49,653 nucleotides of DNA, taken from sequence record PP069513, one strand, 5' to 3'. Below are positions 47 to 49,573 of this stretch, piece after piece. Position 1 is the first letter of the stretch. Every line of letters begins with the position of its first letter. This DNA comes from Escherichia phage BUCT-XGG-1. A model generated the notes under the pieces. It was not told the DNA's origin. It searched no databases and saw only the letters and a program-made list of their open reading frames with translations. The position numbers and the translations under genes are program-made.

Positions 47-271
47 ATGAAAATGAACCAGGATCTTAATAAAATTGCTTTCAACAATACCATCGCTGAC
101 ATTGCTGCCAAGGTCGAGCTATCCCGCAATCCCGTTAAGCAGATCGCTTCTGAGTGTGAGTTCTTCGCATTGCAGATTGAAGGTGACGAATACAAGAGAG
201 TGTTTGCAGCCCTAAGTAAATGCAAAACACGCAAAGCAATGAGTATTATCATCAATAGCACGAATTGCTAA
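47..271 (+). CDS. hypothetical early protein (74 aa)
   Basis: ORF with AGAGA-like RBS; last codons NSTNC plus TAA stop are supplied by the 19-bp box at 254-272. Confidence 0.5.
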   Translation: MKMNQDLNKIAFNNTIADIAAKVELSRNPVKQIASECEFFALQIEGDEYKRVFAALSKCKTRKAMSIIINSTNC

Positions 272-298
272 ACTAAGCCTCACGGATTGAGGCATAAT
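254..298 (+). promoter_or_regulatory. box promoter candidate (AATAGCACGAATTGCTAAA, then -10 CATAAT)
   Basis: Box 254-272, hairpin GCCTCA/TGAGGC, CATAAT at 293-298 (22-bp gap from TTGCTA); followed by leader CATCGAAACGAA and gene 337..561. Confidence 0.5.
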
Positions 299-336
299 AA
301 TTTCATCGAAACGAAGTACACAAAGAGGAAGTAAAA

Positions 337-561
337 ATGTCAGTTAAAACTCAGAACGTAGTGGCACACATCGAAGCAAAAGGCCGTGCAATCGTCAAGC
401 TGGACCGCGCCGCAGGCGTAAGCCAAATCACCATCACGCGCCGTGAGTTCGACCGCTACGTTGTTGGCACACATCCAGGCTCAATCATCCGTAGCCTTAC
501 CCGTGCTGAGATGGTAAACCTGTTAAACGATAACTCACTTTACATCAATTCCTGGAGCTAG
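337..561 (+). CDS. hypothetical protein (74 aa)
   Basis: ORF with RBS AAGAGGAAG upstream of ATG. Confidence 0.5.
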   Translation: MSVKTQNVVAHIEAKGRAIVKLDRAAGVSQITITRREFDRYVVGTHPGSIIRSLTRAEMVNLLNDNSLYINSWS

Positions 562-563
562 CA

Positions 564-779
564 GTGCATCAAGACAATTTCTGTAGCCGCCACCGCGCGG
601 CACTTGAAGCCGGACTCAATGAAGAGTGGGCGCTCAATGTTGCTTACGGATGCATCGAACTCGATGACGCATTGGGCGTTATGGATATGGATCTGGAAAG
701 CGAAGGCAACCAGTCAGTAGACGGAATCGGTGATGACTTCGACTACCGCTTAAAATTTGATGACGGCATACCGTTCTAA
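564..779 (+). CDS. small acidic protein ending in SSB-like tip (FDDGIPF)
   Basis: GTG start with GGAG RBS; very acidic; C-terminus DDGIPF resembles the SSB C-terminal tip DDDIPF. Confidence 0.5.
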   Translation: MHQDNFCSRHRAALEAGLNEEWALNVAYGCIELDDALGVMDMDLESEGNQSVDGIGDDFDYRLKFDDGIPF

Positions 780-785
780 GGAACC

Positions 786-1028
786 ATGATGAAAATTCTC
801 TGCAAAAACGTAATCACCAGCACAGACAAGAAGGTTCTTACACCATTCGTTAAAGGCTATGTATACGACGCTGAGCCGCTAATCATTAACGGTAAGACAA
901 TCCCGAACGAGTGGGTGATTAATGGCGCTGAGCGACCGCATAAGCACGATTCTGGCTGGATTGCTATCGCTGCATGGCCCAGCGGATTTGCCATCATTGG
1001 CATCGCAACGTTTGACGAGGTGAAATAA
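786..1028 (+). CDS. hypothetical protein (80 aa)
   Basis: ORF in tight early gene array. Confidence 0.45.
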   Translation: MMKILCKNVITSTDKKVLTPFVKGYVYDAEPLIINGKTIPNEWVINGAERPHKHDSGWIAIAAWPSGFAIIGIATFDEVK

Positions 1029-1186
1029 TGCTCACTCAAGCCATCCGATTTGAACTACTACGACAACTACACGATCGCGAAGCTCTCAGGTCAAGGATGG
1101 TATCCATGGAGCACCAGCGCTCAGGTTGAAGACTTGCAAAGCAGTTACGAAATCACAAAGAAAGCAATTGAGAAGGCAAAGAAGAA

Positions 1187-1444
1187 ATGAATAGAAAAAG
1201 AAGTCCAGACGGAAAATTTTCTGGTGATCCGCTACTACCTGGAGGTTTTCATAATTGCAACTCATGCGGAATTAAAAAGGAGGCTGACGATAAAAACTTT
1301 AGAACAATAAATAAAGGAAAAACATGCGAGAGCCTAAGCAAAACTTGCAGAAAATGCGAGTATCAAAAAGGAAAGGATAAACACGCAAGGAACATGAAAA
1401 ACCCTGAATTTGCAGATGCGAGAAGGGAAAGGTGCAGGAACTAG
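1187..1444 (+). CDS. Cys-rich protein (possible N-terminal part of an HNH-like gene)
   Basis: ATGA overlap with upstream frame; CxxC pairs; same reading frame as 1466..1756, separated by TAG at 1442-1444. Confidence 0.4.
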   Translation: MNRKRSPDGKFSGDPLLPGGFHNCNSCGIKKEADDKNFRTINKGKTCESLSKTCRKCEYQKGKDKHARNMKNPEFADARRERCRN

Positions 1445-1465
1445 AGGAGCAACAACAGAAGTAAG

Positions 1466-1756
1466 GTGGCGCTTAAAAATTATCAAGCAATAGATAAAAA
1501 GAAAGGACTTACATGCACCATGACAATTGATGATGTTGATGAGTTGCAGTCAATGCCATGCTACTATTGCGGAGATACGGAGCGGGTTGGTGCTGACAGG
1601 ATTGGCAACTCACTTGCTCACACGCGCAAAAACTGCCTTCCATGTTGCCCTGATTGTAATATCTGTAGGAGTAACACTTTTTCAGTTGATGAGATGATGG
1701 TGATAGGCAAAGCGATAAGACTCGTAAAGAAATCAAGAAATAGCACGAATTGCTAA
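1466..1756 (+). CDS. HNH-like endonuclease domain protein
   Basis: GTG start; Cys/His/Asn pattern CYYCG..DRI..H..N..PCC..CN; C-terminal NSTNC and stop encoded by the box. Confidence 0.45.
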   Translation: MALKNYQAIDKKKGLTCTMTIDDVDELQSMPCYYCGDTERVGADRIGNSLAHTRKNCLPCCPDCNICRSNTFSVDEMMVIGKAIRLVKKSRNSTNC

Positions 1757-1783
1757 AGCCCTTCGGGGCTTTTCCTGTATATT
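1739..1783 (+). promoter_or_regulatory. box promoter candidate (TGTATATT -10)
   Basis: Box 1739-1757, hairpin GCCCTTCGGGGC, TATATT at 1778-1783 (22-bp gap), leader CATCGAAACGAA, gene 1822. Confidence 0.5.
1758..1775 (+). terminator. intrinsic terminator-like hairpin
   Basis: GCCC TTCG GGGC followed by TTTTCC, directly after stop of 1466..1756. Confidence 0.4.
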
Positions 1784-1821
1784 CATCTCATCGAAACGAA
1801 ACACACTAAAGGAAAATAATC

Positions 1822-2175: not shown

Positions 2176-2246
2176 GTAGCATTTTCTGGCAAGCGGTTTT
2201 ACCATAGGTGCGTTAACATTAGCGCACCAACTAAGGAGTTATTTTA

Positions 2247-3830
2247 ATGTTTGATTTCAACGAAGATAAATTGTCAATCGATCAGGTCATGGCTGTAGCA
2301 GCTGCCGATAACCTGCCACCTTTGCGCGTTGCCATCAATGCGAACGGATACAGGCAGAGCCAATCATTCTGGAAAGCCCCAACAGAAATTGACTCAGGCG
2401 GTGACAAATATCCGGTTATCTCACTTGGTAACGATTATGATGTCGTTGGTAAGCTGTCAAGCAATGCCGCTCGTTCAGTTCAGTTCCCCGAGTCGTCCGC
2501 TTACATGCATTTCCTCGGATGCATATCAGCCGCCATGCTGGGCAGATTTACGGTTGAGTATCACGGAACACAACAGCCTACCGCGCTGTACGTCGTAACC
2601 AGTCAGCCACCATCGACAGGTAAATCAGCCATCAACTCACTTTCGCTGGCCCCGATGATCGCAGAGACTGAGCGACTCAACGAGATCAGAAAGCGTGACC
2701 GCAAGAAGATTATGGCTAAGCTCTCCGCTCTATCCAAGGAGATGAAGCAGGAGAAATCACCGTCTGACATGGCGGCGCTGTTTGAGGAAAAAGAAGAACT
2801 GGAAGAAAAACTGGAGCGACTTTGTGACATCGTGTTCCCCGTATCCGACACCACGCCGGAAGGTCTTGCGCGAATCAACAACCGCCAGGGAAACTTTGCA
2901 GTGATCTCGGATGAAGCAACGAGCGTGAACTCACTGTTAGGCATGACCTATGGTGATGGCTCGAAGAAAACGAACAGCGAACTCGTTCTTAAGGCGTGGG
3001 ATGCTGGTAACGTATCTATCGCGCGTGCGAACGCAGACAATAACATGAGCTTCATTGCGATGGGCTGCATATCTGTAATTGCACAGGATGAAACGATAAA
3101 CGCGATCATGAACGCTGGCGCGCGTGGTATCGGTGTATCCGAGCGTTTCCTGCTTGTGCGTGAGAAGTCATTCCTTGGTGAGCGTGTGTTCGTAGATGAG
3201 AAAGGCGAATCAACATATGAGCCGATTGATGGCGGACTCAAGGCGGACTACTTCCGTCTGGTCCATGAGATCATGAGCGAACACGAAGTCAACCTGACAG
3301 TGAGCACGTCGGCGATGAAATATCTCAACCGTGCGCGTCAGGATATGGAACCTCACCTTGCGGACGGCGGTAAGTATTCACACACAATGCTTCGCGGCGC
3401 GCTGGGTAAGTTCGATAAGCAGGCTATCAGGATCGCGGCTGTTCTTCACACTGTGCGTAACTGGTTTAATCCCAATGGCGGGAGTCCGCAGAAGTCCAGA
3501 GAGATTGAGCTTGACACAATGCAGGAAGCAGTAATTATGTTCCAGGAACTGAGTAAGACCTATCTGTCATCTGCAAACGCTGCTGGTCATGCTGGCGACC
3601 ATGCGGAGATGAATAAGCTGATCGATATTCTGATCAAGCAAGGTAAGAACGGGAAAGGCGTTGTAGGTGTCCGATCCCTATATGAAGCGGCTCGTAAGGT
3701 TAAGCCATTCGAGGGCCAGGCTGGCGTAATGACTCGAATCAAAGACCATCTGATCCCTATGCTTGATGAGAAAAACTATACGTGCCTGATTGGTGATAAA
3801 ATTTACATTAATCCGCGACTGCTGGGGTAA
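2247..3830 (+). CDS. large early protein with P-loop-like motifs (527 aa)
   Basis: RBS AAGGAG; Walker A-like PSTGKS and Walker B-like VISDEAT; N- and C-terminal segments repeated in 47566..48123. Confidence 0.6.
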   Translation: MFDFNEDKLSIDQVMAVAAADNLPPLRVAINANGYRQSQSFWKAPTEIDSGGDKYPVISLGNDYDVVGKLSSNAARSVQFPESSAYMHFLGCISAAMLGRFTVEYHGTQQPTALYVVTSQPPSTGKSAINSLSLAPMIAETERLNEIRKRDRKKIMAKLSALSKEMKQEKSPSDMAALFEEKEELEEKLERLCDIVFPVSDTTPEGLARINNRQGNFAVISDEATSVNSLLGMTYGDGSKKTNSELVLKAWDAGNVSIARANADNNMSFIAMGCISVIAQDETINAIMNAGARGIGVSERFLLVREKSFLGERVFVDEKGESTYEPIDGGLKADYFRLVHEIMSEHEVNLTVSTSAMKYLNRARQDMEPHLADGGKYSHTMLRGALGKFDKQAIRIAAVLHTVRNWFNPNGGSPQKSREIELDTMQEAVIMFQELSKTYLSSANAAGHAGDHAEMNKLIDILIKQGKNGKGVVGVRSLYEAARKVKPFEGQAGVMTRIKDHLIPMLDEKNYTCLIGDKIYINPRLLG

Positions 3831-5800: not shown

Positions 5801-5827
5801 GATTGAATCCTCTTTGAGTGAGATATG

Positions 5828-5873
5828 AATATAGCGCCTTCCGGCGCTATAGTGTTAGGCAATTCGTGCTATC
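5828..5873 (-). promoter_or_regulatory. box promoter candidate (variant ATAGCACGAATTGCCTAA)
   Basis: Box 5855-5873 abutting TGA stop of 5872..7014; hairpin GCGCC GGAA GGCGC; TATATT at 5828-5833 (23-bp gap). Confidence 0.45.
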
Positions 5874-7014
5874 AGATGTCGCTCATTTCAGGACGGTAAA
5901 CAAATCGACCTACTTCGCCGAACTCCTTGGAGTAGACGATTACCGCCGCCTGGCGATACGAGCGCCAACCGCCGCGCGCCGCATAGGCATCTTTCGCGCC
6001 CAACTGACCATGAACCTCATCAATGCCAAGTGTACCCTCAGTGATCGTCTGGTGATGCCAGTGCCCCGAGTGAGTGTAAATATATTTGCTCGTACCGAAC
6101 TCTTCGCGGAAGTCAGTAGCCATTGCCGCCAGTCGAGTATCTGCTTTCTTCATGGTGTGACCATGAGTGTATCCCAGCAATGTTTTGCCCCACTTGGTAC
6201 GGTGAAGAATCATAGGAGATGTATCAACCGTTACACGCACCTCATCTTCAAAGTATGCCGCCATTGCAGCGCGGAGCCAAATCATACCAGCCTGGTCATG
6301 GTTTCCTTCAATGATCTGAATTTCGACCTCTTCGTGCTTATCCAGCATTAGCGCCACCGCGCGGCGTACGGAACGGATTGCAACGTGAACTAGCTTGGCG
6401 TATCGACTATCCTGATCCAGTACGTGACCGCTTGCAGGCGTTACTGCGTCCAGGCCATCAGAGTGAAGGAAGTCACCGCCGATTAACAGGACTGCTTTCT
6501 TAGCCTTCGGAGATACGCCGACAGAATAATCAAAGAAGTTTTTCAGTACTTTCTCTGAGATGTCGGTGCTGTAGTTCTCACCGCATTCATGCTTGTGTGC
6601 CATAGCGCCAATATGAAGATCGAATACCGGATAGAGCGCCAGGAGATTTTCATCGTAGTGAGGTTCGCCAAGGATAGGCTGAGCCGCCGCGCGTGGTAGT
6701 TCATCACAGAATGCTTCAATTGCAGCATCCATCATGGCGGCTAACTTTTCCTTGTCCTGATCGGTCTTAACCCAGCGCACAACCTCAGAACCGTCAGCGC
6801 GAATCATAGTTGATGTACCTTTAACCTGAAAACCCTCTGGTACGTGTACTCTTACGTGTTTATTTCCGTGGAACTCACCGCGCTTTGCCAGGCGGCTTGA
6901 GCGCTGCTCAACAGTTCGAATGTTCATCCCGTATTCCTGGGCGATTTGGCGCAGTGTTTTACCAGCTTCGCGTTCAGCAATGAATTGTTCGTCAGTGATT
7001 TTTTGAATAGCCAT
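5872..7014 (-). CDS. metallophosphoesterase with N-terminal HTH
   Basis: Motifs DLHIG, GGDFLHSD, GNHD, GHTH, GHWHH (calcineurin-like, SbcD/Mre11-like order); N-terminal TLRQIAQEYGMNIRTVEQR helix-turn-helix. Confidence 0.65.
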   Translation of the reverse strand: MAIQKITDEQFIAEREAGKTLRQIAQEYGMNIRTVEQRSSRLAKRGEFHGNKHVRVHVPEGFQVKGTSTMIRADGSEVVRWVKTDQDKEKLAAMMDAAIEAFCDELPRAAAQPILGEPHYDENLLALYPVFDLHIGAMAHKHECGENYSTDISEKVLKNFFDYSVGVSPKAKKAVLLIGGDFLHSDGLDAVTPASGHVLDQDSRYAKLVHVAIRSVRRAVALMLDKHEEVEIQIIEGNHDQAGMIWLRAAMAAYFEDEVRVTVDTSPMILHRTKWGKTLLGYTHGHTMKKADTRLAAMATDFREEFGTSKYIYTHSGHWHHQTITEGTLGIDEVHGQLGAKDAYAARGGWRSYRQAAVIVYSKEFGEVGRFVYRPEMSDI

Positions 7015-7811: not shown

Positions 7812-7841
7812 GATGATTCCTCGTCTCGTTGGTATGAAAGA

Positions 7842-7886
7842 AGTATACCCGCGCGGTGGCGGGTATGTTTAGCAATTCGTGCTATT
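7842..7886 (-). promoter_or_regulatory. box promoter candidate
   Basis: Box 7868-7886 containing TAG stop of 7882..8109; TATACT at 7842-7847 (22-bp gap). Confidence 0.45.
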
Positions 7887-9107: not shown

Positions 9108-9146
9108 TTTGATTTCCTTGGTTGGTTACTTCGTTTCGATGAGGTG

Positions 9147-9192
9147 ATAATACACCACCTCACCGATTCGTCTTTAGCAATTAGTGCTATTC
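9147..9192 (-). promoter_or_regulatory. box promoter candidate
   Basis: Box ATAGCACTAATTGCTAAA (9173-9192) supplying NSTNC-stop of 9174..9602; TATTAT at 9147-9152 (22-bp gap); leader CATCGAAACGAA. Confidence 0.5.
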
Positions 9193-9602
9193 AGCATATC
9201 AGCAACGGCTTTCTTGTATTCCTCCTGGCCGTACGCCACCGCCGCGAATCCGCCACGCTCTCGGACACGCCGGAGGAAATCTTTCTGCTCCTTACTGACT
9301 GGTGATGCCTTTCCTTTTCCGCTCTTATTGACGCGCTTTAATTCTATGGCTCCGAAAGGATATTTACCGAACGGACCTAGAAGGAATACAAAGTCACTAA
9401 CCCCCTTCAATAACCCGCTCTGAGCATCCTTTAACGCCGTGTGGATGTGCTTCTTGTTCTCATTAACGGCGTGCCAGAACAGCAAATCACCATGCCTAAC
9501 CTTCGTCCAAGTCACGCAATCTACTTGGTGCTTGCTTTCCGTCCATGTGTCAGATTTGTCTGGCGTGTAATATTCAATGTAATCTATTTTATCGGTTTTC
9601 AT
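9174..9602 (-). CDS. VRR-NUC domain nuclease
   Basis: GVSDFVF ... AIELKR pattern matching VRR-NUC PD-(D/E)xK core. Confidence 0.55.
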   Translation of the reverse strand: MKTDKIDYIEYYTPDKSDTWTESKHQVDCVTWTKVRHGDLLFWHAVNENKKHIHTALKDAQSGLLKGVSDFVFLLGPFGKYPFGAIELKRVNKSGKGKASPVSKEQKDFLRRVRERGGFAAVAYGQEEYKKAVADMLNSTNC

Positions 9603-10081
9603 TTTTTCGCTCCGTGGTTTTTATGGAACCCATTGGTTGACTCTGTAAGTTTTCTTGCTGAGATTGCATCGGCAAGTGACCTTCCTTCGTATAGGAATTT
9701 TTTCTTACCGCCAATCTGTATCTGTGCTACCCATGTCTTATTCCTTGACTTCCAGTTAACTCCTGTAACTCCGCTTTTGTTGTTTGAATACATCGACTTG
9801 TTAAGCATGTTATCGCCGCGACTAACAAGCCTTAAGTTTTCTATTCTATTATCAGTTCTTATGTGGTTTATGTGGTCAACCTCCATTCCGTTCGGCATTG
9901 GTCCGTTATGCATTACCCAAACTATGACGTGAGCGGGTTATGACTTCTTTTTGTACATGACTTTAATGTAACCTTCGCTGTCTATAGTGCCGGCTAAGTC
10001 TCCCTCATACACCTTTGCGCTGGGCTTTATAGCCCAGAATAATAATCCATTTTTATAATTCAGTATGTTATTAAAAATCAT
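9599..10081 (-). pseudogene. HNH-AP2 homing endonuclease interrupted by in-frame TAA
   Basis: ATG at 10081 (ATGA overlap with helicase stop) gives MIFNNILNYKNG...YKKKS then TAA at 9938-9940, then in frame PAHVIVWVMHNG...DHINHIRTDNRIENLRLV; full-length paralogs at 17492, 36060, 12801. Confidence 0.6.
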
Positions 10082-12180
10082 AAGTTACCGTCCAATCCGA
10101 AATCCTTACGTGAGATAATATCCTCACCTTTTGCATTCTTGCGGTGAGTTACCCGCACCGGATGTGCTATGTGGTGAGCGTTGTTTAAAATCATTTTCGC
10201 ACTTCTGTAAGCTGCCATTAATTTTGCGATCTTACTGTCATGCACGTGAGGTAATACCCCTTTTTGTTTCCATATCGTGTGGCATACCTGCGCCGTTGAC
10301 TGAGGGAAGAACTTCTCATACGCGATGAAATTAACTCCCACTGAGTCTGTTAGGTCGTAACGATAAAGAATACCAGTCTGATTGCGTGTCAGCGTTACTT
10401 CAAAACTGTTCACTGTGCACCAGTCGTTTTTGGTGTAAGCCTTACCAGTCAGATTATCATTTGGATCTTTCAGACTCACGTCACAGCAACGGCATATTCT
10501 CGCCACTACGTCATTCTCAGCGCCACATCCCTTAACGATAACCTCACCAGTGCGATCATCAACCTGATCCTCACAAATACGAGACTTCCAGAAATACTCA
10601 CAACGATTGCCGTTTTCGTCCCTGTGAATGCAGCGGCGGGCGTAAAAGCTGTTCTCGGTTCCGCACAGTTCACATTTTTTCGTCTCTTTCTTACCATCGA
10701 AGCGGCGCTGGTACTGAGCCTCTTCAAGAATCGGATCGAAGTAAAGCTGACCAAGCTCATCCATCGTGCCAGCGAAATCCCATACCAAGTGATCTTCTTT
10801 CACCATTCCCATCGCTTTTTGCCACGGCTTAAGCAATCGCATACCTCGACCAAGCAACTGTATTAGCAGGGTAAGTGAGCCGATCTTGCGCATGATTACC
10901 GAAAAATCCCAAAACGGAACGTTAACGCCAGTGGTTAGCGCTAACACCTGGAATATGTATTTGATCTCGCCACGGTTCGCCGCCTCCAGTATCGCTTGTC
11001 GTTTTTTGGTGTTCGTCTTCTCCGTGATGATCTCATAGGTAGCGTCAGGTGGCAGATAGCTCGCCGCCTCTTTGCAATGGCGCTGGCCTGAACACGTAAT
11101 CAGTACACCATTTCGCTTCTTCGCCTCTTCGACTACCATTCCCATTATTCGCTTGGTCATGCTGGCGTTATCATGGATTTTCTTCTCCATCGCCTTCATT
11201 TCTTTCTGACCGAAGTCAGCCGTTCCATCCTGACTGGACGCCTTAAACTCATCCAGATCATATCCAGCGTCACCGACACTTCCGAAGATTGTTGGAACAA
11301 CAGAGCCGAACTCAATCAGGTAGCTGGTGTCGATGTTAGTAACCTGCTCACGCCAGAATCCTGGAAGCTTAGGGTTATCGACAACAATTGGCGCTGTTCC
11401 TCTGAACTCCGAACCAGTCATGCCGAAGATGCGTAATTCCTTCCCGTTCTTCTCTTTGCAGCGGCGCATCAATTCAGTGATTATGATCGTGTACTGGCTT
11501 CGTTTTGTTCCAAGAACAGGCTCGCCAGTCTTCCGGCTTATCAGCAATTGCTTATCCATCACCTGAACGCCAACCTCTACGCCATCAAGGTATCCATTGA
11601 CATAACCTTCGCTGTTTTTCGGGTAGTCAACGAATACACGCTCATCCTTTTCAGTGAGCATCATTTCAATCGTCTCTTCGTTGTCGATGGCGGCGGCAAG
11701 GTCTTCCCAATCCACCTGGTGACATTCATCAATACCCAGCACCATAGGTGTAAAATCACCAAGCGCCTTAAACAGACCGTTCGCAACCGAACCTTCCGAA
11801 CCGACAACGATAGGGAAGTAAGCTGATTTTGTGTTCAGTCCAGCACAGTAAACTGAGTTAGGAACACCGAAGTTTGAGATCTCCTCACTATCCTGAGCGA
11901 CTATATCGCCCTGACGCGCCAGTATCATCATCGACAGGCCCATTTCTTTTACGCGCGATGCAATCATGGCAAAGCCGATCGTCTTACCTGCCGACACTGA
12001 CGCTTTAACGATGAATGGATGCTTATAGCGAGCAATGCGCTTGCCGATCTCGTCATACATTACGCACTGATACTCATAAGGAACCATGTCGCCAAATGTG
12101 AATTTATCCTGAATCTCTTTAATCTTTTGCGGGCCAAGTTCTTCTATCTGTTTTTTAATGGATTTAATGCGCATAGCCAT
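10078..12180 (-). CDS. SF2 DExH-box helicase with C-terminal Cys-rich region
   Basis: Walker A SAGKT, DECH box (GIDECHQ), C-terminal CxxC zinc-finger-like clusters. Confidence 0.8.
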   Translation of the reverse strand: MAMRIKSIKKQIEELGPQKIKEIQDKFTFGDMVPYEYQCVMYDEIGKRIARYKHPFIVKASVSAGKTIGFAMIASRVKEMGLSMMILARQGDIVAQDSEEISNFGVPNSVYCAGLNTKSAYFPIVVGSEGSVANGLFKALGDFTPMVLGIDECHQVDWEDLAAAIDNEETIEMMLTEKDERVFVDYPKNSEGYVNGYLDGVEVGVQVMDKQLLISRKTGEPVLGTKRSQYTIIITELMRRCKEKNGKELRIFGMTGSEFRGTAPIVVDNPKLPGFWREQVTNIDTSYLIEFGSVVPTIFGSVGDAGYDLDEFKASSQDGTADFGQKEMKAMEKKIHDNASMTKRIMGMVVEEAKKRNGVLITCSGQRHCKEAASYLPPDATYEIITEKTNTKKRQAILEAANRGEIKYIFQVLALTTGVNVPFWDFSVIMRKIGSLTLLIQLLGRGMRLLKPWQKAMGMVKEDHLVWDFAGTMDELGQLYFDPILEEAQYQRRFDGKKETKKCELCGTENSFYARRCIHRDENGNRCEYFWKSRICEDQVDDRTGEVIVKGCGAENDVVARICRCCDVSLKDPNDNLTGKAYTKNDWCTVNSFEVTLTRNQTGILYRYDLTDSVGVNFIAYEKFFPQSTAQVCHTIWKQKGVLPHVHDSKIAKLMAAYRSAKMILNNAHHIAHPVRVTHRKNAKGEDIISRKDFGLDGNL

Positions 12181-12217
12181 AGTATTAAATGCCTTTCATG
12201 TTCGTTCGATTGACGTT

Positions 12218-12261
12218 ATAATAACAACCATCGAAACCAATGTTTAACAAAAAGTGCTATT
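12218..12261 (-). promoter_or_regulatory. box promoter candidate (variant ATAGCACTTTTTGTTAAA)
   Basis: Box 12243-12260; TATTAT at 12218-12223 (21-bp gap); upstream of helicase operon. Confidence 0.45.
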
Positions 12262-12264
12262 GAG

Positions 12265-12747
12265 GTGATGAAAATGAATGCAAATGATAAGCGTACTCTT
12301 AACGGTAACAACGGAACTATCCGCACGGAAGATAAGAAGCAGCGCAAACGACCGTCAGGTTACTATGTTCTCAAGGATGAAGTAAAGGCCGGATTAAGAG
12401 CGCGACTTGATATTGTGTTTGAGTTCTACGGCAGCAAGGCGAACATGGCGAAGCAATTAAAAGTTACTCGACAGGCAGTTGAGGAATGGTTTAAGCGTGG
12501 GATGATGTCGGCGCGCGGTGCTCAACTGGCGCACAACCGATATAAGCGAACTGGCGAAGGGTTCCGCGCTACATTCTGCCGACCAGACTTGCAATTCGAC
12601 GGGAACGGTAAGCCGTTAACGCTGCGTTGCAAAAAGCGTCACATGTTGCGCGTCGTCACCGAGGCTGAACTAGCCACTAAGCCTGAATGTCGCTCATGGC
12701 GAAAAATTAAAGCAGCAAACGAAGCAGCACGGAAAGCTAAAGAATAA
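12265..12747 (+). CDS. HTH DNA-binding protein (Cro/YdaS-like)
   Basis: Segment GSKANMAKQLKVTRQAVEEWF fits an HTH; basic protein; divergent from helicase operon. Confidence 0.45.
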   Translation: MMKMNANDKRTLNGNNGTIRTEDKKQRKRPSGYYVLKDEVKAGLRARLDIVFEFYGSKANMAKQLKVTRQAVEEWFKRGMMSARGAQLAHNRYKRTGEGFRATFCRPDLQFDGNGKPLTLRCKKRHMLRVVTEAELATKPECRSWRKIKAANEAARKAKE

Positions 12748-14245: not shown

Positions 14246-14270
14246 ATGCCTGACGTAATGCTACAATGTG

Positions 14271-14289
14271 TTTTAGCAATTAGTGCTAT
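14271..14289 (-). promoter_or_regulatory. orphan box copy in inverted orientation
   Basis: TTTTAGCAATTAGTGCTAT on plus strand; no -10 at the usual spacing in the box orientation; sits 22 nt upstream of tail fibre ATG. Confidence 0.4.
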
Positions 14290-17415: not shown

Positions 17416-17452
17416 TATATATACCTTTGTTTACTTTGTTTGATTTACGGTG

Positions 17453-17495
17453 ATTATAGCAAATCACCGCGTTCGTGTTTAGCAAAAAGTGCTAC
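17453..17495 (-). promoter_or_regulatory. box promoter candidate
   Basis: Box GTAGCACTTTTTGCTAAA (17478-17495) containing TAG stop of HNH gene; hairpin CGGTGATT..AATCACCG holding TGCTATAAT (21-bp gap). Confidence 0.5.
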
Positions 17496-17950
17496 CTGCC
17501 ATGCCTTAAAGTAAAATCACCATTCATTGAGATGTATCTTTCCCTTGCCTCTTTCGCTTCAATTGCCGTGTTGAAACTACCAAGGCTTTTCTGCACTCCA
17601 TTTACCTTTACCCTTGCGTTCCATTTACATCTTTGCTTAACAAAAACAACACCTGTGAATCCTGATGTGTTATTTGACTGCATCTTTTTATTTTTATTGT
17701 TGATGGCTCTAGTTACAAGTCTTAGGTTTTCAATCCTGTTATCACTTCTTATTCCGTTAATGTGGTCTATCTCGTAACCTTCTGGTATAGGTCCGTAGTG
17801 CATTTCCCATATAACCCTATGATATAGAAACTTCACATAGTTAAATGAGATCATTAAGTACCCGTTACCTTTCGGTGTTCCGGCAATCTTGCCGCTTTTT
17901 ATCCAGTAAAGGTTGCCGTCTATGTATTTTAATTTCTCATTGAAATTCAT
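17492..17950 (-). CDS. HNH-AP2 homing endonuclease
   Basis: EIDHINGIRSDNRIENLRLV HNH core and AP2-like C-terminal region; inserted between exonuclease and Erf. Confidence 0.8.
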   Translation of the reverse strand: MNFNEKLKYIDGNLYWIKSGKIAGTPKGNGYLMISFNYVKFLYHRVIWEMHYGPIPEGYEIDHINGIRSDNRIENLRLVTRAINNKNKKMQSNNTSGFTGVVFVKQRCKWNARVKVNGVQKSLGSFNTAIEAKEARERYISMNGDFTLRHGR

Positions 17951-19412: not shown

Positions 19413-19458
19413 AATAGCACAAATAGCTAAAGACTCCGCCGCTCGTTGCATGTATAGT
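19413..19458 (+). promoter_or_regulatory. box promoter candidate (variant AATAGCACAAATAGCTAAA)
   Basis: Box 19413-19431, TGTATAGT at 19453-19458 (23-bp gap), then membrane peptide and lipoprotein genes. Confidence 0.45.
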
Positions 19459-19494
19459 TACTCCATAGAAAGCAAATCACATAAGGGTTAAGAA

Positions 19495-24499: not shown

Positions 24500-24534
24500 G
24501 ATGTTTAACCTTTCGTGCGATTTATCGAAGTTTC

Positions 24535-29941: not shown

Positions 29942-29977
29942 AAAACCCCCATACGAAAAAAGCGCCCGTAGGCGCTA

Positions 29978-36063: not shown

Positions 36064-36545
36064 TTTTTACTCCCGTGATTTTTATGAAATTTATATACAG
36101 ACTCCGCAACCTTTCTTGCAGAGATTGCGTCATCTTTTCTATCGTATCTACCAAGGAATTTCTCCTTTTTGTCCACCCTTATTGAAGCAATCCATTTACT
36201 GGTTCTATTACACCAGCTAACGCCAACAACTCCGCTTTTGTTTGACTTGCTCATGGATACGTTTTTGCAATTCTCTTGTCTAGTAGTTACGAGCCTTAGG
36301 TTTTCTATCCTGTTATCATCTCTGATATGGTTTATATGGTCAATCTCCATTCCTTCAGGTATTTTACCATGGTGCATCTCCCATATTACCCTATGAGCCG
36401 GAGTTAGCCTACCCATAATCCTAACGTAAATATATCCACCCTCATCCTTCCAGCCAGCCATATCGCCAACTTTAACCCTTTTCGATGTCGGATTTTTCCA
36501 GATGAGATCTTTCTCTATATGATAAAAATAATCATTGAAATTCAT
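36060..36545 (-). CDS. HNH-AP2 homing endonuclease
   Basis: EIDHINHIRDDNRIENLRLV core and AP2-like tail; inserted between head morphogenesis and scaffold genes with 4-nt overlaps. Confidence 0.8.
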   Translation of the reverse strand: MNFNDYFYHIEKDLIWKNPTSKRVKVGDMAGWKDEGGYIYVRIMGRLTPAHRVIWEMHHGKIPEGMEIDHINHIRDDNRIENLRLVTTRQENCKNVSMSKSNKSGVVGVSWCNRTSKWIASIRVDKKEKFLGRYDRKDDAISARKVAESVYKFHKNHGSKK

Positions 36546-41452: not shown

Positions 41453-41529
41453 TGGCGTTCAGCGCTGGACTCGAACCAGCAACTAAGACTTAGGAGGTCT
41501 TTGCGTTATCCTGTTAACGCCAGCAGAAC
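41453..41529 (-). tRNA. tRNA-Arg (anticodon CCU)
   Basis: Hand-folded cloverleaf: D stem GCGT/ACGC, anticodon stem AAGAC/GTCTT, loop CU-CCU-AA, T arm GCTGG-TTCGAGT-CCAGC, encoded CCA; acceptor stem has one U.U mismatch. Confidence 0.65.
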
Positions 41530-41734
41530 TGAATTAAGGCCGGTTACGGATCTCCGGCGAGCTTTCACAATGCTCCGACAAACAACGCAGTCTCTTTTGG
41601 CAGCTGCCGCCATTTGCAAGTTTACGCCTTATCTTGCATGGTCCAAGCTATATATACGACTTACGAATCGCTCGTTGCCAATTAGTGGCCTCGTCTGTTT
41701 ACGGGATTAAATATACCAGTCAGTGAGATGTCTG

Positions 41735-41929
41735 TCAATCAACTTTTTTAAAAGTTCCATACGTCGGGCAGACAGGGTAGTCGATCGCGACCTTATTCCC
41801 CTCGTCACTGTAGACGTAAACGTATCCCTGGGAATCAACTTTTTCCACTGTGCACTCGCAGCCAGTAAAGAACTCATAACCGCGCGCGCCGATGCACTTG
41901 ATCACGTCACCTTTCTTGATCTTACTCAT
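41735..41929 (-). CDS. hypothetical protein (64 aa)
   Basis: Start taken at MSKIKKGDV with GGAGAAAG RBS; Cys-containing. Confidence 0.4.
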   Translation of the reverse strand: MSKIKKGDVIKCIGARGYEFFTGCECTVEKVDSQGYVYVYSDEGNKVAIDYPVCPTYGTFKKVD

Positions 41930-42696: not shown

Positions 42697-42726
42697 TTCT
42701 GCTTCCTCGTTCGTTTCGATGGGGTA

Positions 42727-42770
42727 ACTATACAGCCACCCCGATTATGAGTTTTAACAAAAAGTGCTAT
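42727..42770 (-). promoter_or_regulatory. box promoter candidate
   Basis: Box ATAGCACTTTTTGTTAAAA (42752-42770) containing TAG stop of upstream gene; hairpin with TGTATAGT (22-bp gap); leader CATCGAAACGAA. Confidence 0.5.
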
Positions 42771-43326: not shown

Positions 43327-43355
43327 TTTGCTTTCCTCTCGTTTGGTGTGAACTA

Positions 43356-43401
43356 ACTATAACAAAACCCGCCGGAGCGGGTTTAGCAATTCGTGCTATT
43401 T
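43356..43401 (-). promoter_or_regulatory. box promoter candidate
   Basis: Box 43382-43401 abutting TAA of kinase gene; hairpin CCCGCTCCGGCGGG; TGTTATAGT (22-bp gap). Confidence 0.5.
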
Positions 43402-44069: not shown

Positions 44070-44687
44070 TTATTTACCGCTTACGAGATTGCATTTTTTG
44101 CACTGGCGAACGCCATGTGGAGGTAGCGGATCGCTAAATTCGTGCTCGCAAACTTTTTCTACGCCGTGAGACTTAAGTCCAGAGTGCACGTTGTCGCCAT
44201 AGTCACACACCTGATAGGTGGTGATGCCGAGGCTTCTGAAGTGCGCGATAACGCTAGGACTATCATCAAAGGCCGCAGTGATGCGGTGCAAGCCAATGTA
44301 TCGTAAAAATTCTTCCTTGATGATCGTATCCTTTCGATTGTCATCAGCTTGGCGCATGACCAGAAAGTTGTATTTAGCGCCAGCATCATACAGCCATTGC
44401 GTTGATTCTTCAACAACTGCATCCGATCGACCAGTAAGTACGATGATGAAAGCGCCGGAAGCGAACAGGCCATTCATTACGTCAATCGTTTCCTGGAATG
44501 GCGTGTCGAATTTACTCAGTGAGTTAAATTCAAGCCATGACTCAGTGAGGTGTAAATCTTTGGTCGGTAGCTTATGCAGGCGGTGAGTTCCGTCTGACAG
44601 AGTGCCGTCGAAATCAAAGCAGTATACTTTTTTATTGACTGCAACTGTTTCTAAATGGTGTTTAATCATGGTGTATAGCTGATTCAT
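44070..44687 (-). CDS. HAD-superfamily phosphatase
   Basis: HAD motif I FDFDGTLSD near N-terminus; C-terminal Cys pairs. Confidence 0.65.
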   Translation of the reverse strand: MNQLYTMIKHHLETVAVNKKVYCFDFDGTLSDGTHRLHKLPTKDLHLTESWLEFNSLSKFDTPFQETIDVMNGLFASGAFIIVLTGRSDAVVEESTQWLYDAGAKYNFLVMRQADDNRKDTIIKEEFLRYIGLHRITAAFDDSPSVIAHFRSLGITTYQVCDYGDNVHSGLKSHGVEKVCEHEFSDPLPPHGVRQCKKCNLVSGK

Positions 44688-45136
44688 AGTAAGTATCCTG
44701 TAGTTATCACTCTGTATGCTGTTCTTTTGCCAACTCCCATTGCGTCAGCTATATCCTGATAGGTCATGCCATCAGTTCTCATTCTTAACATCTTTCTTGA
44801 GTCTTCGCTAGTTACTATTGACTTCGGGTTCTTAAGCCCCTCAACGCTTCGGAACCTGCCCTTCGATACGCAATCAATCACGTTATCATGCTGACTACCT
44901 ACCGATAGGTGCTTTGGATTAATGCAAGAAGGATTATCGCATGAATGCATTATTACACCTTTTACGCATTCATAATCTACATCATTGCTTATGAAGTAAG
45001 CTACTTTGTGCGCCCTTCTAGTAGCTCCAGCGTATCTTACCTGGCCATATCCATCAACGGTCCTTGAGTTATTCCACTCTATACAATCATCCGTCTGCCT
45101 CCTTATCATTATTATTAATTCATCTACCTTTTTCAT
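44684..45136 (-). CDS. HNH endonuclease with C-terminal HTH
   Basis: HSCDNPSCINPKHL HNH/zinc motif and C-terminal HTH (MTYQDIADAMGVGKRTAYRV); 4-nt overlap with phosphatase. Confidence 0.65.
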   Translation of the reverse strand: MKKVDELIIMIRRQTDDCIEWNNSRTVDGYGQVRYAGATRRAHKVAYFISNDVDYECVKGVIMHSCDNPSCINPKHLSVGSQHDNVIDCVSKGRFRSVEGLKNPKSIVTSEDSRKMLRMRTDGMTYQDIADAMGVGKRTAYRVITTGYLL

Positions 45137-45167
45137 GTTGCCACCCTTTCGTGTGGTTGGTGTGGGG

Positions 45168-45212
45168 ATTATACCAGTCAGGATGAATCCCCTTTTAACA
45201 AAAAGTGCTATT
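45168..45212 (-). promoter_or_regulatory. box promoter candidate
   Basis: Box 45194-45212 containing TAG stop; hairpin GGGGATT..AATCCCC holding TGGTATAAT (22-bp gap). Confidence 0.5.
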
Positions 45213-46014: not shown

Positions 46015-46055
46015 ATGTGATTCCTCAGTTGGTTTGTGTTCACTTGACAGGAGAC

Positions 46056-46099
46056 ACTATAGCTAATGTCTCCGAGCAAGTTTTAACAAAAAGTGCTAT
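46056..46099 (-). promoter_or_regulatory. box promoter candidate
   Basis: Box 46081-46099 containing TAG stop; hairpin GGAGACA..TGTCTCC with GCTATAGT (22-bp gap). Confidence 0.5.
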
Positions 46100-46723: not shown

Positions 46724-46762
46724 AAATTACCCCTTAGTTTATTGTTTCACTTCAATGAGTGC

Positions 46763-46806
46763 ACTATAGCAAATGCACTCACGGCAGTTTTAACAAAAAG
46801 TGCTAT
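46763..46806 (-). promoter_or_regulatory. box promoter candidate
   Basis: Box 46788-46806 containing TAG stop; hairpin GAGTGCA..TGCACTC with TGCTATAGT (22-bp gap). Confidence 0.5.
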
Positions 46807-47290: not shown

Positions 47291-47348
47291 CGGCTTCTGC
47301 CTCCACTTCCTCAGCCGCCCTGATGAGTGCCGCCGCCAGTTTGCGGGC

Positions 47349-47501
47349 TTACTTAGGACTGTATTGCATCAGTGTCTGGCCGCCCCTGTAGTAATCCGGA
47401 TCGAAGTCAATGGACACAACGGTATCCCAATCTCTTTTTGTGATGGCTACTTCAGCCTGGTCAAAGTAAACATCTTCAATACGAACATTTTTCATCTTCA
47501 T
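47349..47501 (-). CDS. hypothetical protein (~50 aa)
   Basis: Start taken at MKMKNV after AAAGAGGAAA RBS. Confidence 0.35.
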   Translation of the reverse strand: MKMKNVRIEDVYFDQAEVAITKRDWDTVVSIDFDPDYYRGGQTLMQYSPK

Positions 47502-47525
47502 TTCCTCTTTGTTGTCTATGGGGTA

Positions 47526-47571
47526 ATCATAGCTGACTACCCGATCCATTGTTTAGCAATTCGTGCTATTC
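47526..47571 (-). promoter_or_regulatory. box promoter candidate
   Basis: Box 47552-47571 containing TAG stop of 47566..48123; hairpin GGGTA..TACCC with GCTATGAT (22-bp gap). Confidence 0.5.
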
Positions 47572-48123
47572 ACCATTCAGGAGTGATTTAGCTTTCCGAT
47601 AAAACTCGACAGCCTTTCTGACCTCATCTGCATCATAGCCATGAATCATGTCTGAGCTTGCCTGCAATTTGCTATGAGATTTGCGCTCAACCGATCTCCA
47701 TGAGTCGCACCACTTGTGAATGTCTCTCCCATACATGCCCACCAGGTATGGGTGTGCATATATCTTGTCACCAATAAGGCAAATGATTCCCGAGTCCTGT
47801 AGTGATGGTAGGATGTTGTCAATCAGGTTATTCATTACTCCATTACGCTCGACGAACGGCTGGACCTTTCTGATCGCCTCATATGTTGAGCGAACTCCCA
47901 CAACGCCTTTTCCATTTATCGCTTGCTTCCAGATCTTTTCAACCACGACGCATTGTTCACGATTTAGGTTTGCGCGACGCATAACTTCTAATTCGCACCA
48001 GTACTTTTGTGACTGTCGGTATCCGTTAGCATTGATTGCAACTCGTAGTGGTGGAAGCCCATCTTCCGTAGCAATCTTCACAATCTGCTCATCTGTCAGC
48101 TTCTCTTCGTTAAAATCAAACAT
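47566..48123 (-). CDS. mini-paralog of the 527-aa early protein
   Basis: N-terminus MFDFNEEKL..LPPLRVAINANGYRQSQ and segment NGKGVVGVRS..CLIGDKIY match the two ends of 2247..3830. Confidence 0.55.
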   Translation of the reverse strand: MFDFNEEKLTDEQIVKIATEDGLPPLRVAINANGYRQSQKYWCELEVMRRANLNREQCVVVEKIWKQAINGKGVVGVRSTYEAIRKVQPFVERNGVMNNLIDNILPSLQDSGIICLIGDKIYAHPYLVGMYGRDIHKWCDSWRSVERKSHSKLQASSDMIHGYDADEVRKAVEFYRKAKSLLNGE

Positions 48124-48128
48124 CCCCG

Positions 48129-48656
48129 TTATTTCGTCTCCCTAATCATTTCCTGGTACATTTTGATTGCCTTGATGGCTCCTGTAATCTCATCGCCCTC
48201 AAAGTTAGTCACGGATGGCATCAGCTTGAGTATTTTGACCTTAAAGTCGCTCACGGCCTTCTCTGCAATCTGGCCGTTTGCCTTCACTCGCTTTCCTGTC
48301 TGGATTGCGCCATCAACCAAAGACAGATAAGCACACCGAACCTCGACGTCATCACCGAAATCACCATCCTTAATTGAAAGTTTTGCACGAACGTTTGCCT
48401 CCTGTATCTCTGGCATCCTGGCTACCGTATTGGCGACATATGACGCCTTCAGCTTTGACATGCTGTACTTGCCACCTACATCCAGATCCTCACGACTTAT
48501 GCCTCCTATATCACTAGATGTGAGGCCGTAAACCTGGCGAGCTATTAGATGGATTGGAACGTGGTAGCTGCGGTTCTCGGACTTGAGCGCTTGCTCAGCC
48601 ATGTAGCGGATAACGTCACCGAGGCTTACTGCTTCTTTGTGCTCTGACATACTCAT
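48129..48656 (-). CDS. hypothetical protein (175 aa)
   Basis: First gene of leftward early operon. Confidence 0.5.
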   Translation of the reverse strand: MSMSEHKEAVSLGDVIRYMAEQALKSENRSYHVPIHLIARQVYGLTSSDIGGISREDLDVGGKYSMSKLKASYVANTVARMPEIQEANVRAKLSIKDGDFGDDVEVRCAYLSLVDGAIQTGKRVKANGQIAEKAVSDFKVKILKLMPSVTNFEGDEITGAIKAIKMYQEMIRETK

Positions 48657-48692
48657 TACTCCTGATTGGTTTGTCTTCGTTAAGATGAATAC

Positions 48693-48720
48693 ATAGTATC
48701 ACACATCTACGCGTTATCAA
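48693..48720 (-). promoter_or_regulatory. candidate sigma70 promoter (TTGATA-N16-TACTAT)
   Basis: Minus strand TTGATA at 48715-48720, 16-bp spacer, TACTAT at 48693-48698, ~35 nt upstream of first leftward gene. Confidence 0.4.
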
Positions 48721-48940
48721 GCGTTATCCGTGCAAATTATCTGACTAGTTACAGATTTCTGCCAATTTCGCCATATATAGCTCAATGTAAAGTCTGCGTA
48801 CAGTTTGTAGATAAAGATTTTTAGCAAATTGGCCCCTATATGCCTTTTTATTCCTACAATGTCGTCATATTCCTACAAGTGTAGGAAAATATCATAGAAA
48901 ACTATCGCAATATCCCATATCCCTTATCTACATTATCTAC

Positions 48941-49016
48941 ATATATATATAATAATAATAATAATATAGATAAAGGGTTGTTATATAAGGATATTTTATT
49001 GTAACCATGGCGTAAT
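48941..49016 (+). repeat. AT-rich element, copy B of a two-copy repeat
   Basis: Homologous to 19267-19345 by eye; flanked by short direct/inverted repeats (TTCCTACAA x2, ATCTACAT x2, GGCGTAA x3). Confidence 0.6.
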
Positions 49017-49283
49017 TCTGCGTGATAAGCGTACACGATTCCTACGGTGGGCTTCTTCATCTACACGGCGTAACTTTTATAACGCGTATGCGCTAGAAAC
49101 GTGTGGTGGGAAAATCCTACCAGGCGATCAGGTGATCAGACTTCACCCCATCATTCCCCCCATCAATGAATCATTGCTCAATTCGCAACAATCGAAAACA
49201 TAATTGCAATAGATGCAATATTGCTATCTGCGCAATAGTGAAGTGAATCATTGCAATAGCTGCAACAATCCATAAATCGAACG

Positions 49284-49328
49284 AATAGCACTTTTTGCTA
49301 AATACATAAATCATCATTCTGGTAATGT
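49284..49328 (+). promoter_or_regulatory. box promoter candidate
   Basis: Box AATAGCACTTTTTGCTAAA (49284-49302); TGgTAATGT at 49320-49328 (22-bp gap). Confidence 0.4.
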
Positions 49329-49528
49329 GTATCTCAAGGAAGCAGTGAAGCGAACGCCAAGTAGCTACTTCCCAGAGGTCGAATCGTCCAGATGAAAAAT
49401 GCTGGCGAGTGTTGAGAAAGGGCACGTTGAGTCACTTCCGAATAGGTAAACTCCCAGACACCTTCTCCGGCAGCAAAGTCTGACCGGGTTCCTCGAAAGA
49501 AGTAAATGAAGTAGAAATAAGGTTAGTA

Positions 49529-49573
49529 AATAGCACGAAATGTTAAAACAGCAATAAAGAAAATAAGTATAGT
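49529..49573 (+). promoter_or_regulatory. box promoter candidate reading across window end
   Basis: Box AATAGCACGAAATGTTAAA (49529-49547), TATAGT at 49568-49573 (22-bp gap); no long ORF before window end. Confidence 0.45.

Follow-up and report, generated by a model that had tools for sequence, protein, structure and literature searches.

Marbox-like sites in the repeated promoter cassettes of a T1-like Escherichia phage

A short repeat of T1-like phages was described in 2024, when a re-annotation of phage TLS (in the journal Phage) reported 18 intergenic copies of the 21-nt direct repeat aaATAGCACnnnTTGnTAAAA (PMC11447400). The repeat, which that paper also notes in T1, Rtp and Rogue1, is co-oriented with transcription and lies ~76 nt before start codons. 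No more than three promoters of sigma70 type were recognized by its authors, who suggested that the repeat might be a stoperator, an enhancer site or a UP element and listed its function as an open question for T1-like phages (PMC11447400). Here we describe the corresponding box in Escherichia phage BUCT-XGG-1 (sequence record PP069513), whose 49,653-bp sequence, called the window below, is the complete, circularly permuted genome of a T1-like siphophage (Drexlerviridae). The box resembles the marbox, the site of the host activators MarA, SoxS and Rob, and probably is one.

The marbox has been written as 5'-gcannwwntgnnaaa-3' (PMC12052159), as GCAC plus CAAA elements (PMC9638938) and as CACG/T-7N-AAA (PMC8811837). 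At class II promoters the site is forward-oriented, clusters near -41, replaces a recognizable -35 element and is combined with a canonical -10 (PMC10268841). The same geometry emerges from two further studies (PMC9638938, PMC8811837), and the forward-orientation rule from a third (PMC12052159). A second precedent is provided by the promoter-early stem-loop (PeSL) cassettes of the T4-type phages phi1 and RB49, in which the stem-loop terminates transcription and which have been proposed to mediate modular shuffling (PMC2839356).

The box, its promoter geometry and its match to the marbox

In the window, the box has the form (A)ATAGCAC-N3-TTGYTAAA. All 17 copies listed in a first-pass annotation of the sequence are present, the 17th (at 5855) being the variant ATAGCACGAATTGCCTAA. 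The N4 spacing given in that annotation is in error: searched literally, it yields only four three-mismatch matches, a chance level, and the true spacing is N3, which also fits the length of 19 bp stated there. A search of the window with TAGCACNNNWWGYTAA returns 16 exact and two chance-like one-mismatch matches against 0.47 expected, and none of 100 shuffled sequences reaches this number, so the copy count withstands a shuffled-sequence control. As first described, orientation agrees with the downstream gene in all copies but that at 14271. The reported absence of copies from the structural module is true of strong copies; one degenerate, marbox-like copy is located there (ATCGCACGAAAGGTTAAA, 24504-24521, minus strand). 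This additional marbox-consensus match has no -10 and immediately precedes the start codon of tail J; it is conserved in T1, with its equivalent at 25022.

The box fits the description of the TLS and T1 repeat in its consensus (aaATAGCACnnnTTGnTAAAA), its intergenic and co-oriented placement, its distance of ~76 nt from start codons and the A/T/G subgroups of its central triplet. The first-pass annotation did not say whether the box was already described for related phages; it has been published for TLS, T1, Rtp and Rogue1 (PMC11447400); unlike the present analysis, that paper does not report a fixed -10, a hairpin layer or a marbox match. The classes of the central triplet (GAA or TTT) were considered as marks of two regulons and rejected, because they differ at orthologous sites of T1 and the window and follow no regional pattern. 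A sigma54 promoter (TGGCAC-N5-TTGCW), whose GG and GC elements stand exactly 10 bp apart at -24 and -12, was likewise rejected, given that TAGCAC-N3-TTGC is 2 bp short and lacks the GG.

A TATAAT-like hexamer follows TTGYTA at 21-23 bp in 16 of the 17 window copies, in agreement with the first-pass annotation. The dominance of the 22-bp spacing is also borne out, albeit in 12 copies rather than the 13 counted earlier, with two copies at 21 bp and two at 23 bp. The -10 is TG-extended in about half of the window cassettes. An exact scan of IMG/VR supplied ~25 T1-like genomes, from which 369 non-identical copies were aligned by the box and nothing else. In 225 of these the best -10-like hexamer is exactly 22 bp from TTGYTA and in 273 it is at 21-23 bp, and the column consensus reads aAATAGCACtttTTGcTAAAac-N16-tG.TATaaTtacc.CAtc.AAA, so that the fixed spacing recurs in related genomes. 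At 22 bp, TTGYTA is too distant from the -10 to serve as a -35, and the box is centered at about -41/-42 of the predicted start, the class II activator position; both earlier statements stand. The -35 position of the cassettes reads AAAacN or TAAACA, with no recognizable -35 element, and the -10 consensus is tG.TATaaT. These alignments support the view that the boxes belong to promoter cassettes that have a -10 and lack a usable -35.

Transcription is predicted to start at the A of the conserved CATCGAAACGAA, with +1 at the A of CATCGAAAC, ~7 nt past the hexamer (for example at ~305, 1790, 9140 and 42720). A leader, (C)ATCGAAACGAA, is found at the predicted +1 (~305-316, 1790-1801, 9140-9129 and 42720-42709) and in cassettes of the phages C130_2 and Lw1, discussed below. 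It also stands behind canonical promoters that have no box, those of T1 recE (~30350) and of the first leftward early transcript of the window (48688-48676). Because the same leader follows such box-less promoters, the hexamers can be read as real -10 elements. The leader itself could have a role in initiation, mRNA stability or translation.

When the box is read as an asymmetric 20-mer, with position 1 the A before TAGCAC, it takes the form A-T-A-G-C-A-C-n-W-W-T-T-G-Y-T-A-A-A. Against 1.02 expected, the window contains 15 exact copies of the marbox motif gcannwwntgnnaaa, every one of them a box; the older Martin marbox consensus (AYnGCACnnWnnRYYAAA), searched as AYNGCACNNWNNRYYAAA, has 16 against 0.04 expected. 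Across phages, 313 cassettes were picked by a selection pattern that leaves positions 1, 9, 10 and 18 free, and these free positions obey the marbox (A1 in 294 cassettes, W9 in 312, W10 in 309 and A18 in 286). The host motif is matched at every position by 267 of the 313, and the box varies only at positions 8, 9, 10 and 14, which are degenerate in the host motif too. The mar operator marbox of E. coli MG1655 and the phage box have 16 of 20 bases in common.

The geometry agrees as well. The gap between the 20-mer and the -10 is 18 bp in 260 of the 313 cassettes and 17-19 bp in all of them, and in the window it is 18 bp in 12 of 16 cassettes. In the class II promoter of E. coli micF, 18 bp likewise separate the end of the marbox, ACAGCACTGAATGTCAAAAC, from the -10 (TAGAAT). 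Sixteen of the 17 window boxes point toward the downstream gene and the -10. The features of a class II site, namely sequence, forward orientation, overlap with the -35 position near -41, and a canonical -10 without a -35, are all found here relative to a predicted start site.

The core of the box was first described as an inverted repeat, and its 5-bp arms are indeed symmetric, but its flanks (A1 and A16-A18) and strict orientation are not. A class II site for a dimeric helix-turn-helix (HTH) protein of the CRP or FNR type was rejected because two-fold symmetry does not extend beyond these arms and orientation is strict. Given that every specified marbox position is present, that orientation is strict and that the flanks are asymmetric, the site of an asymmetrically bound monomer fits better than a dyad.

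With phmmer --max, the open reading frames (ORFs) of the window, T1 and C130_2 yielded no homolog of MarA or SoxS (no match better than E=3), and among 30 window ORFs scanned with Pfam the sole AraC match was at noise level (14-bit HTH_AraC, ORF 47-271). A phage-encoded MarA-like protein was rejected on these grounds. Sequence, geometry, conservation, hairpin strand bias (see below) and the absence of a phage MarA homolog are established here. The activator, left unnamed in the first-pass annotation, can now be given a specific candidate identity: judged from these sequences, the box is probably the marbox of host MarA, SoxS and Rob, and the cassettes are probably sigma70 promoters of class II activated by these proteins.

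Rob is constitutively abundant; MarA and SoxS are stress-induced. Rob would therefore be the obvious constitutive candidate, with MarA and SoxS adding stress responsiveness. A monomer of the family would bind the forward marbox at -50..-31, overlapping the -35 position, and would stand in for the missing -35 contact via sigma70 region 4 and the alpha-subunit C-terminal domain; the solved micF complexes of SoxS, Rob and RamA are a model for the proposed contacts (PMC8811837, PMC9638938). The order within a cassette would be an upstream stop codon within the box, the 20-bp marbox, an 18-bp spacer, the -10, +1, a ribosome-binding site and a start codon. In 12 window cassettes, the stop codon of the upstream gene does lie inside or beside the box and is usually the TAG or TAA of the box itself. 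Cassettes precede nearly every early and middle operon of the window, and nearly all of these operons (small early genes, replication, recombination, Dam and lysis) would be driven by host-factor-assisted promoters. The structural operon would use ordinary promoters: as the first-pass annotation indicated, its module has no box promoters, and at its head stands a near-consensus sigma70 promoter, TTGACA-17-TATATT with a TG (41738-41710, minus strand).

Stem-loops and the spread of the cassettes

The stretch from the box to +1 folds at a mean of -9.4 kcal/mol, compared with -4.1 in shuffles, and a helix of at least five Watson-Crick pairs is present in 254 of the 313 cassettes versus ~130 in shuffles. 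Stem sequences vary among copies. The internal pairs of these hairpins include 136 G:T but only 27 A:C, a ratio that is ~1:1 in shuffles, and this excess argues that selection for the hairpin acts on the sense strand and hence on RNA transcribed through from the gene upstream. Stems occupy two positions, either in the spacer with the 3' arm entering the -10, or bracketing the -10 and ending at -1. Those of the spacer type are terminator-like, often with tetraloops and a T-rich stretch after the stem. Hairpins that bracket or abut the -10 are found, for example, at 9140-9172, 42720-42752, 46049-46082 and 46756-46789.

A stable hairpin (at most -8 kcal/mol) occurs in all 12 window cassettes that lie directly behind a co-directional gene and in none of the four that do not follow such a gene (12259-, 19415+, 49286+ and 49531+). 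The first-pass annotation placed the hexamer usually inside a short hairpin; a stable hairpin accompanies 12 of the 16 cassettes, as a separate RNA layer found only behind co-directional genes. Its absence elsewhere, together with the 5:1 bias of G:T over A:C, led us to reject a DNA cruciform or a part of the promoter. The hairpin would act separately at the RNA level, serving the transcript of the gene before it as terminator, attenuator or 3'-end structure.

The resemblance to PeSL cassettes is extensive. Both comprise an upstream stop, a promoter, a G-T-paired stem-loop placed between the -35 and -10 or over the -10, a Shine-Dalgarno sequence and a start codon, and both exist in many copies in early, plastic regions. 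PeSL promoters carry a consensus sigma70 -35 and an AT-rich upstream region, whereas here the marbox holds the -35 region and TTGYTA is 22 bp from the -10. PeSL cassettes are further associated with recombination between copies (module shuffling and mini-circles). The present cassettes were considered as recombination breakpoints too, but in a crude test with a fragmentary comparison set homology breakpoints between the window and its relatives showed no enrichment there (7.2% versus 6.3% expected). The idea of a combined promoter and terminator extends from T4-type phages to siphoviruses and podoviruses.

The IMG/VR exact box scan also returned Escherichia phage C130_2 (NC_048067), a Hungariovirus podophage with a P22-like virion that lies outside Drexlerviridae. 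It has eight complete cassettes, among them those at 3760, 4736, 10710, 13857, 34813 and 37099, with the same box, spacing, -10 and CCCATCGAAACGAA leader. C130_2 and the T1-like phages share only endolysin, Dam, primase, helicase, a VRR-NUC protein, RecE, Erf and two tiny ORFs. A few cassettes are also present in the RB43-like T4-type phages Lw1 (at 10292 and 10908), RB16, RB43 and CfP1. All cassette-bearing phages found infect Enterobacteriaceae, and comparison of their sequences indicates that the cassettes cross phage families within these hosts. Because the same cassettes occur in C130_2, Lw1, RB16, RB43 and CfP1, which have no regulator in common with the T1-like phages, a regulator specific to T1-like phages is not a general explanation for them.

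Alternative explanations and phage regulators

Several points weigh against activation by host MarA, SoxS or Rob. Unstressed cells have scarce MarA and SoxS, and their Rob is mostly sequestered, yet T1-like phages thrive in the laboratory. The box is more uniform than host marboxes, with T2, A3, T11 and T15 nearly invariant; this uniformity may result from selection for top affinity, from the embedded TAG and TAA stops, from the 5-bp RNA stem, or from another, more stringent protein. The box was informally compared with many factors before the match was found, so a look-elsewhere discount applies. In T1, phage proteins modulate some box promoters, with Pir activating Pdam and Orf65 activating Porf65 (PMC6737242). 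Finally, a Keio screen of the T1-like phage LL5 gave only receptor and LPS genes, secB and ppiB, and not rob, marA or soxS (PMC7229145). Strict dependence on one of these three genes is thereby excluded for plating in LB. Three-fold redundancy and factor-independent activity of extended -10 elements could nevertheless hide an effect in such a screen. A literature search of incomplete coverage found no paper tying marboxes to T1-like phages; the repeat itself is known, and its reading as a marbox appears to be new.

An unlikely alternative is a phage-encoded activator, either the Pir homolog or an unrecognised early protein, that binds the pseudo-dyad TAGCA-N5-TGYTA at the class II position, the marbox likeness being coincidence or mimicry. 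The 5-bp inverted arms and the uniformity of the box relative to host marboxes would suit such a protein. T1 offers precedents from a 2019 study in which short promoter fragments were cloned upstream of gfp (PMC6737242). There, Pir (Orf23) activates the box-containing Pdam and represses its own promoter, which has a box in its leader, and Orf65 activates a minimal Porf65 cassette, a fragment that runs from 9 nt before the box to 15 nt into orf65 (PMC6737242). Without any infection that same Porf65 fragment already works as a promoter in E. coli, and it does not depend on Pir (PMC6737242), in keeping with a host factor.

Neither protein can account for the boxes in general. The Pir homolog of the window (12265..12747, plus strand; 53% identity, phrog_2856, Cro/YdaS-like HTH), which the first-pass annotation had put forward as a regulator to examine, is ruled out as the general box factor by the Pir-independence of T1 Porf65 and by C130_2, which has eight full cassettes, no Pir homolog and few proteins in common with T1-like phages. 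Orf65 activates the minimal cassette and represses Ppir, but it was rejected because neither the window, with its 17 boxes, nor C130_2 has a homolog. The other protein proposed earlier, encoded at 5872..7014, gave no HTH match and is identified as a DNA repair exonuclease. The window ORF at 44684-45136 was tried as an Orf65 equivalent and rejected as an HNH endonuclease with an HTH tail. A phage activator also sits poorly with the asymmetric conservation and strict orientation of the box, which a symmetric dimer site does not need, and with the differing central triplet classes (GAA or TTT) at orthologous sites of T1 and the window.

The 44684-45136 gene, whose product carries a C-terminal HTH (HTH_23/HTH_7), is one of four scattered HNH-type homing endonuclease genes, the others lying at 9599-10081, 17492-17950 and 35979-36461 (all on the minus strand).

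The junction between helicase and pir (12205-12265) has divergent promoters whose -10 elements overlap on opposite strands (12218-12223 for the helicase; TATAAT at 12217-12222 for pir), and the marbox of the helicase cassette falls at ~+12..+31 of the pir leader. T1 is arranged in the same way (36432-36525). With the -10s overlapping and the marbox in the leader, occupancy of the marbox promoter should shut off pir, which is probably occluded by whatever binds there; the overlap thus provides a structural rationale for the Ppir repression known in T1. A small switch between the regulator and the replication genes may be built into this junction. Pir also represses PrecE according to the T1 literature. 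Ahead of T1 recE lies a long AT-rich intergenic stretch (29850-30378) with repeated GTGTAACAG/GTTACA motifs, which may be an origin or the site of another regulator.

It is quite improbable that no trans-acting factor is involved, the cassettes being extended -10 promoters in which the box is kept as recombination homology, following the PeSL idea, or makes direct contact with RNA polymerase. The architecture is that of PeSLs, proposed as modular shufflers (PMC2839356), about half of the cassettes are TG-extended at the -10, cassettes occur in three unrelated phage lineages, and a minimal cassette is active without phage. Recombination homology, however, requires neither a fixed 18-bp gap to the -10 nor agreement with a host motif position by position, the crude breakpoint test described above shows no enrichment at cassettes, and the box is no A/T-tract UP element. 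Least probable of all are repressor sites (stoperators, an option offered by the TLS authors; PMC11447400) or RNA elements in which the 5-bp stem UAGCA/UGYUA and a second hairpin resemble a nut or put site: although the adjoining hairpin is clearly of RNA type and Y14, the one paired position that varies, can still form a G-C or G-U pair with G4, the boxes lie upstream of the -10 at the activator position rather than over -10/+1 or within transcription units, box variants simply lose pairs with no compensatory changes seen, and the box-to--10 spacing is fixed within 1 bp while the hairpin shifts relative to both, which indicates a DNA-level partnership with the -10.

Cassettes along the genome and relation to known promoters

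The closest records to the window are Escherichia phages P818, TH21/TH30, P817, PH1062 and ESCO41 (87-94% identity across 60-86% of length), and in PH1062 the two window ends adjoin each other. The gene layout was obtained by mapping T1 proteins onto the window. Rightward early genes extend from ~49.3 kb over the window end to ~4.8 kb (plus strand), and small early genes run leftward from 48.7 to 41.7 kb. The minus strand encodes the lysis, exonuclease, Dam, helicase, Erf and RecE genes (4.5-19 kb) and the structural module (40.7 to 19.8 kb); the Pir regulator, primase and tail fibre genes are on the plus strand (12.3-16.2 kb). The sole Rfam match in the window is a tRNA-Arg(CCU) (41453-41529, minus strand), ~175 nt downstream of the sigma70 promoter at 41710-41738.

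Cassette 1 (255..305, plus strand) combines a marbox at 255-274 (ATAGCACGAATTGCTAAACT) with a -10 CATAAT at 293-298 and a predicted +1 at ~305 (CATCGAAACGAA); its spacer holds the hairpin GCCTCA/TGAGGC, and the upstream ORF 47-271 ends at the TAA of the box. Cassette 2 (1740..1790, plus; marbox 1740-1759, -10 TATATT 1778-1783, +1 ~1790) has a terminator-like hairpin, AGCCC-TTCG-GGGCT followed by a T run, and is placed to drive an ST7-like gene and a helicase (2247-3830). On the minus strand, cassette 3 (5821..5872) has the variant box ATAGCACGAATTGCCTAACA, a gap of 19 bp, a -10 TATATT at 5833-5828 and a 9-bp hairpin whose 3' arm overlaps the -10, ahead of an ST14-like gene, holin, endolysin and spanin. 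Cassette 4 (7835..7885, minus; marbox 7885-7866, -10 TATACT 7847-7842, hairpin ATACCCGC/GCGGGTAT) precedes small ORFs and the DNA repair exonuclease at 5872-7014. Cassette 5 (9140..9190, minus; marbox 9190-9171) has its -10, TATTAT (9152-9147), in a hairpin loop and a predicted +1 at ~9140 (CATCGAAACGAA), in front of a lipoprotein-like ORF and the Dam methylase. Cassette 6 (12211..12260, minus) is that of the helicase at 10078-12180, with a marbox at 12260-12241, a gap of 17 bp and a -10 TATTAT at 12223-12218.

The exception to the promoter pattern is the copy at 14270..14289 (minus strand), which has no -10 at class II distance and lies ahead of the tail-fibre gene. It is reversed and stands just downstream of a plus-strand TGCTACAAT extended -10 (region 14246-14289), so that binding at this box could repress the TGCTACAAT promoter. 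T1 also has a box near its equivalent tail-fibre gene (34903).

Cassette 8 (17446..17495, minus strand) has the box GTAGCACTTTTTGCTAAACA, a gap of 17 bp and an extended -10, TGCTATAAT (17458-17453), in a hairpin loop, and precedes Erf and an ST27-like gene. Cassette 9 (19414..19465, plus; box ATAGCACAAATAGCTAAAGA, gap 19 bp, -10 TATAGT 19453-19458) precedes a Cor homolog and has no strong hairpin and no co-directional upstream gene. The next six are on the minus strand. Cassette 10 (42720..42770; marbox 42770-42751) carries its -10, TATAGT (42732-42727), in a GGGGT/ACCCC loop, with +1 at ~42720 (CATCGAAACGAA), and cassette 11 (43349..43399; marbox 43399-43380) has the extended -10 TGTTATAGT and a terminator-like hairpin, ACCCGC-TCCG-GCGGGT plus TTTTG. 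Cassette 12 (45161..45211; marbox 45211-45192, -10 TATAAT 45173-45168, stem GGGGAT/ATCCCC) would drive the HNH endonuclease, a polynucleotide kinase and an ST62-like gene. In cassettes 13 (46049..46099; marbox 46099-46080) and 14 (46756..46806; marbox 46806-46787) the -10s, TATAGT and the extended TGCTATAGT, lie in GGAGACA/TGTCTCC and GAGTGCA/TGCACTC loops, respectively, and cassette 15 (47519..47569; marbox 47569-47550) has a -10 TATGAT and the stem GGGTA/TACCC.

The last two cassettes are on the plus strand and have no hairpin. Cassette 16 (49285..49335; marbox 49285-49304, ATAGCACTTTTTGCTAAATA), 16 of whose 20 marbox positions agree with those in the mar marbox of E. coli, has a weak -10, TAATGT, and is the first rightward promoter of a ~1-kb non-coding divergent region. 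Cassette 17 (49530..49580; marbox 49530-49549) has a -10 TATAGT at 49568-49573, and, the genome being circularly permuted, transcription from it would continue past the end of the window into ORF 47-271. The region that contains both (48657-49653) has no convincing ORF over ~1 kb, separates the divergent early units, and holds, besides the marbox cassettes at 49285 and 49530, canonical leftward promoters (48765-48693) and AT-rich repeats. The cassette at 49285 would transcribe ~200 nt of seemingly non-coding sequence.

A tentative extension of the marbox assignment, drawn from the distribution of the sites, is that the whole family Drexlerviridae (with ~20 consensus class II marboxes per genome), C130_2 and, through a few transferred cassettes, RB43-like phages have wired almost all of their early and middle transcription to the host mar/sox/rob regulon, such that infection outcome is perhaps stress-dependent and phage DNA could titrate the factors. 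If this is true, phage expression would depend on the stress or resistance state of the host (bile, salicylate, superoxide, or marR or soxR mutants), and hundreds of replicating phage genomes could titrate MarA, SoxS and Rob off host efflux and porin control. Phage development would be linked to the regulon that governs porins and efflux by AcrAB-TolC, of which TolC also serves TLS-type relatives as receptor. Such a link would matter for how phages and antibiotics interact, and when T1-like phages are chosen for therapy against multidrug-resistant strains that overexpress MarA. It would also make this virulent phage family an unusual one, in that its own promoters would rely on an activator of the host stress response, and would supply compact, insulated marbox promoters of consensus strength for synthetic biology. 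The marbox reading addresses the function of the repeat, the question listed for T1-like phages in 2024.

The combination of a good -10 and a missing -35 with an activator site that overlaps the -35 region is familiar from the Mor- and C-dependent middle and late promoters of phage Mu and the MotA-dependent middle promoters of T4. Mu and T4 use phage-encoded activators (in T4 together with AsiA), with other site sequences and positions. The cassettes differ from these systems in that no homologous phage protein was found here. They differ from micF-type class II promoters in number (17-25 copies per 50-kb phage genome), in boxes that vary far less than host sites and come far nearer to consensus, in a terminator-type hairpin and conserved leader, and in that the role of the marbox is predicted. 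In their core architecture, the cassettes and micF-type promoters are alike: both have a 20-bp asymmetric marbox with GCAC and YYAAA elements split by an A/T-rich stretch, forward-oriented and centered at ~-41, 18 bp from a canonical -10 and with no -35.

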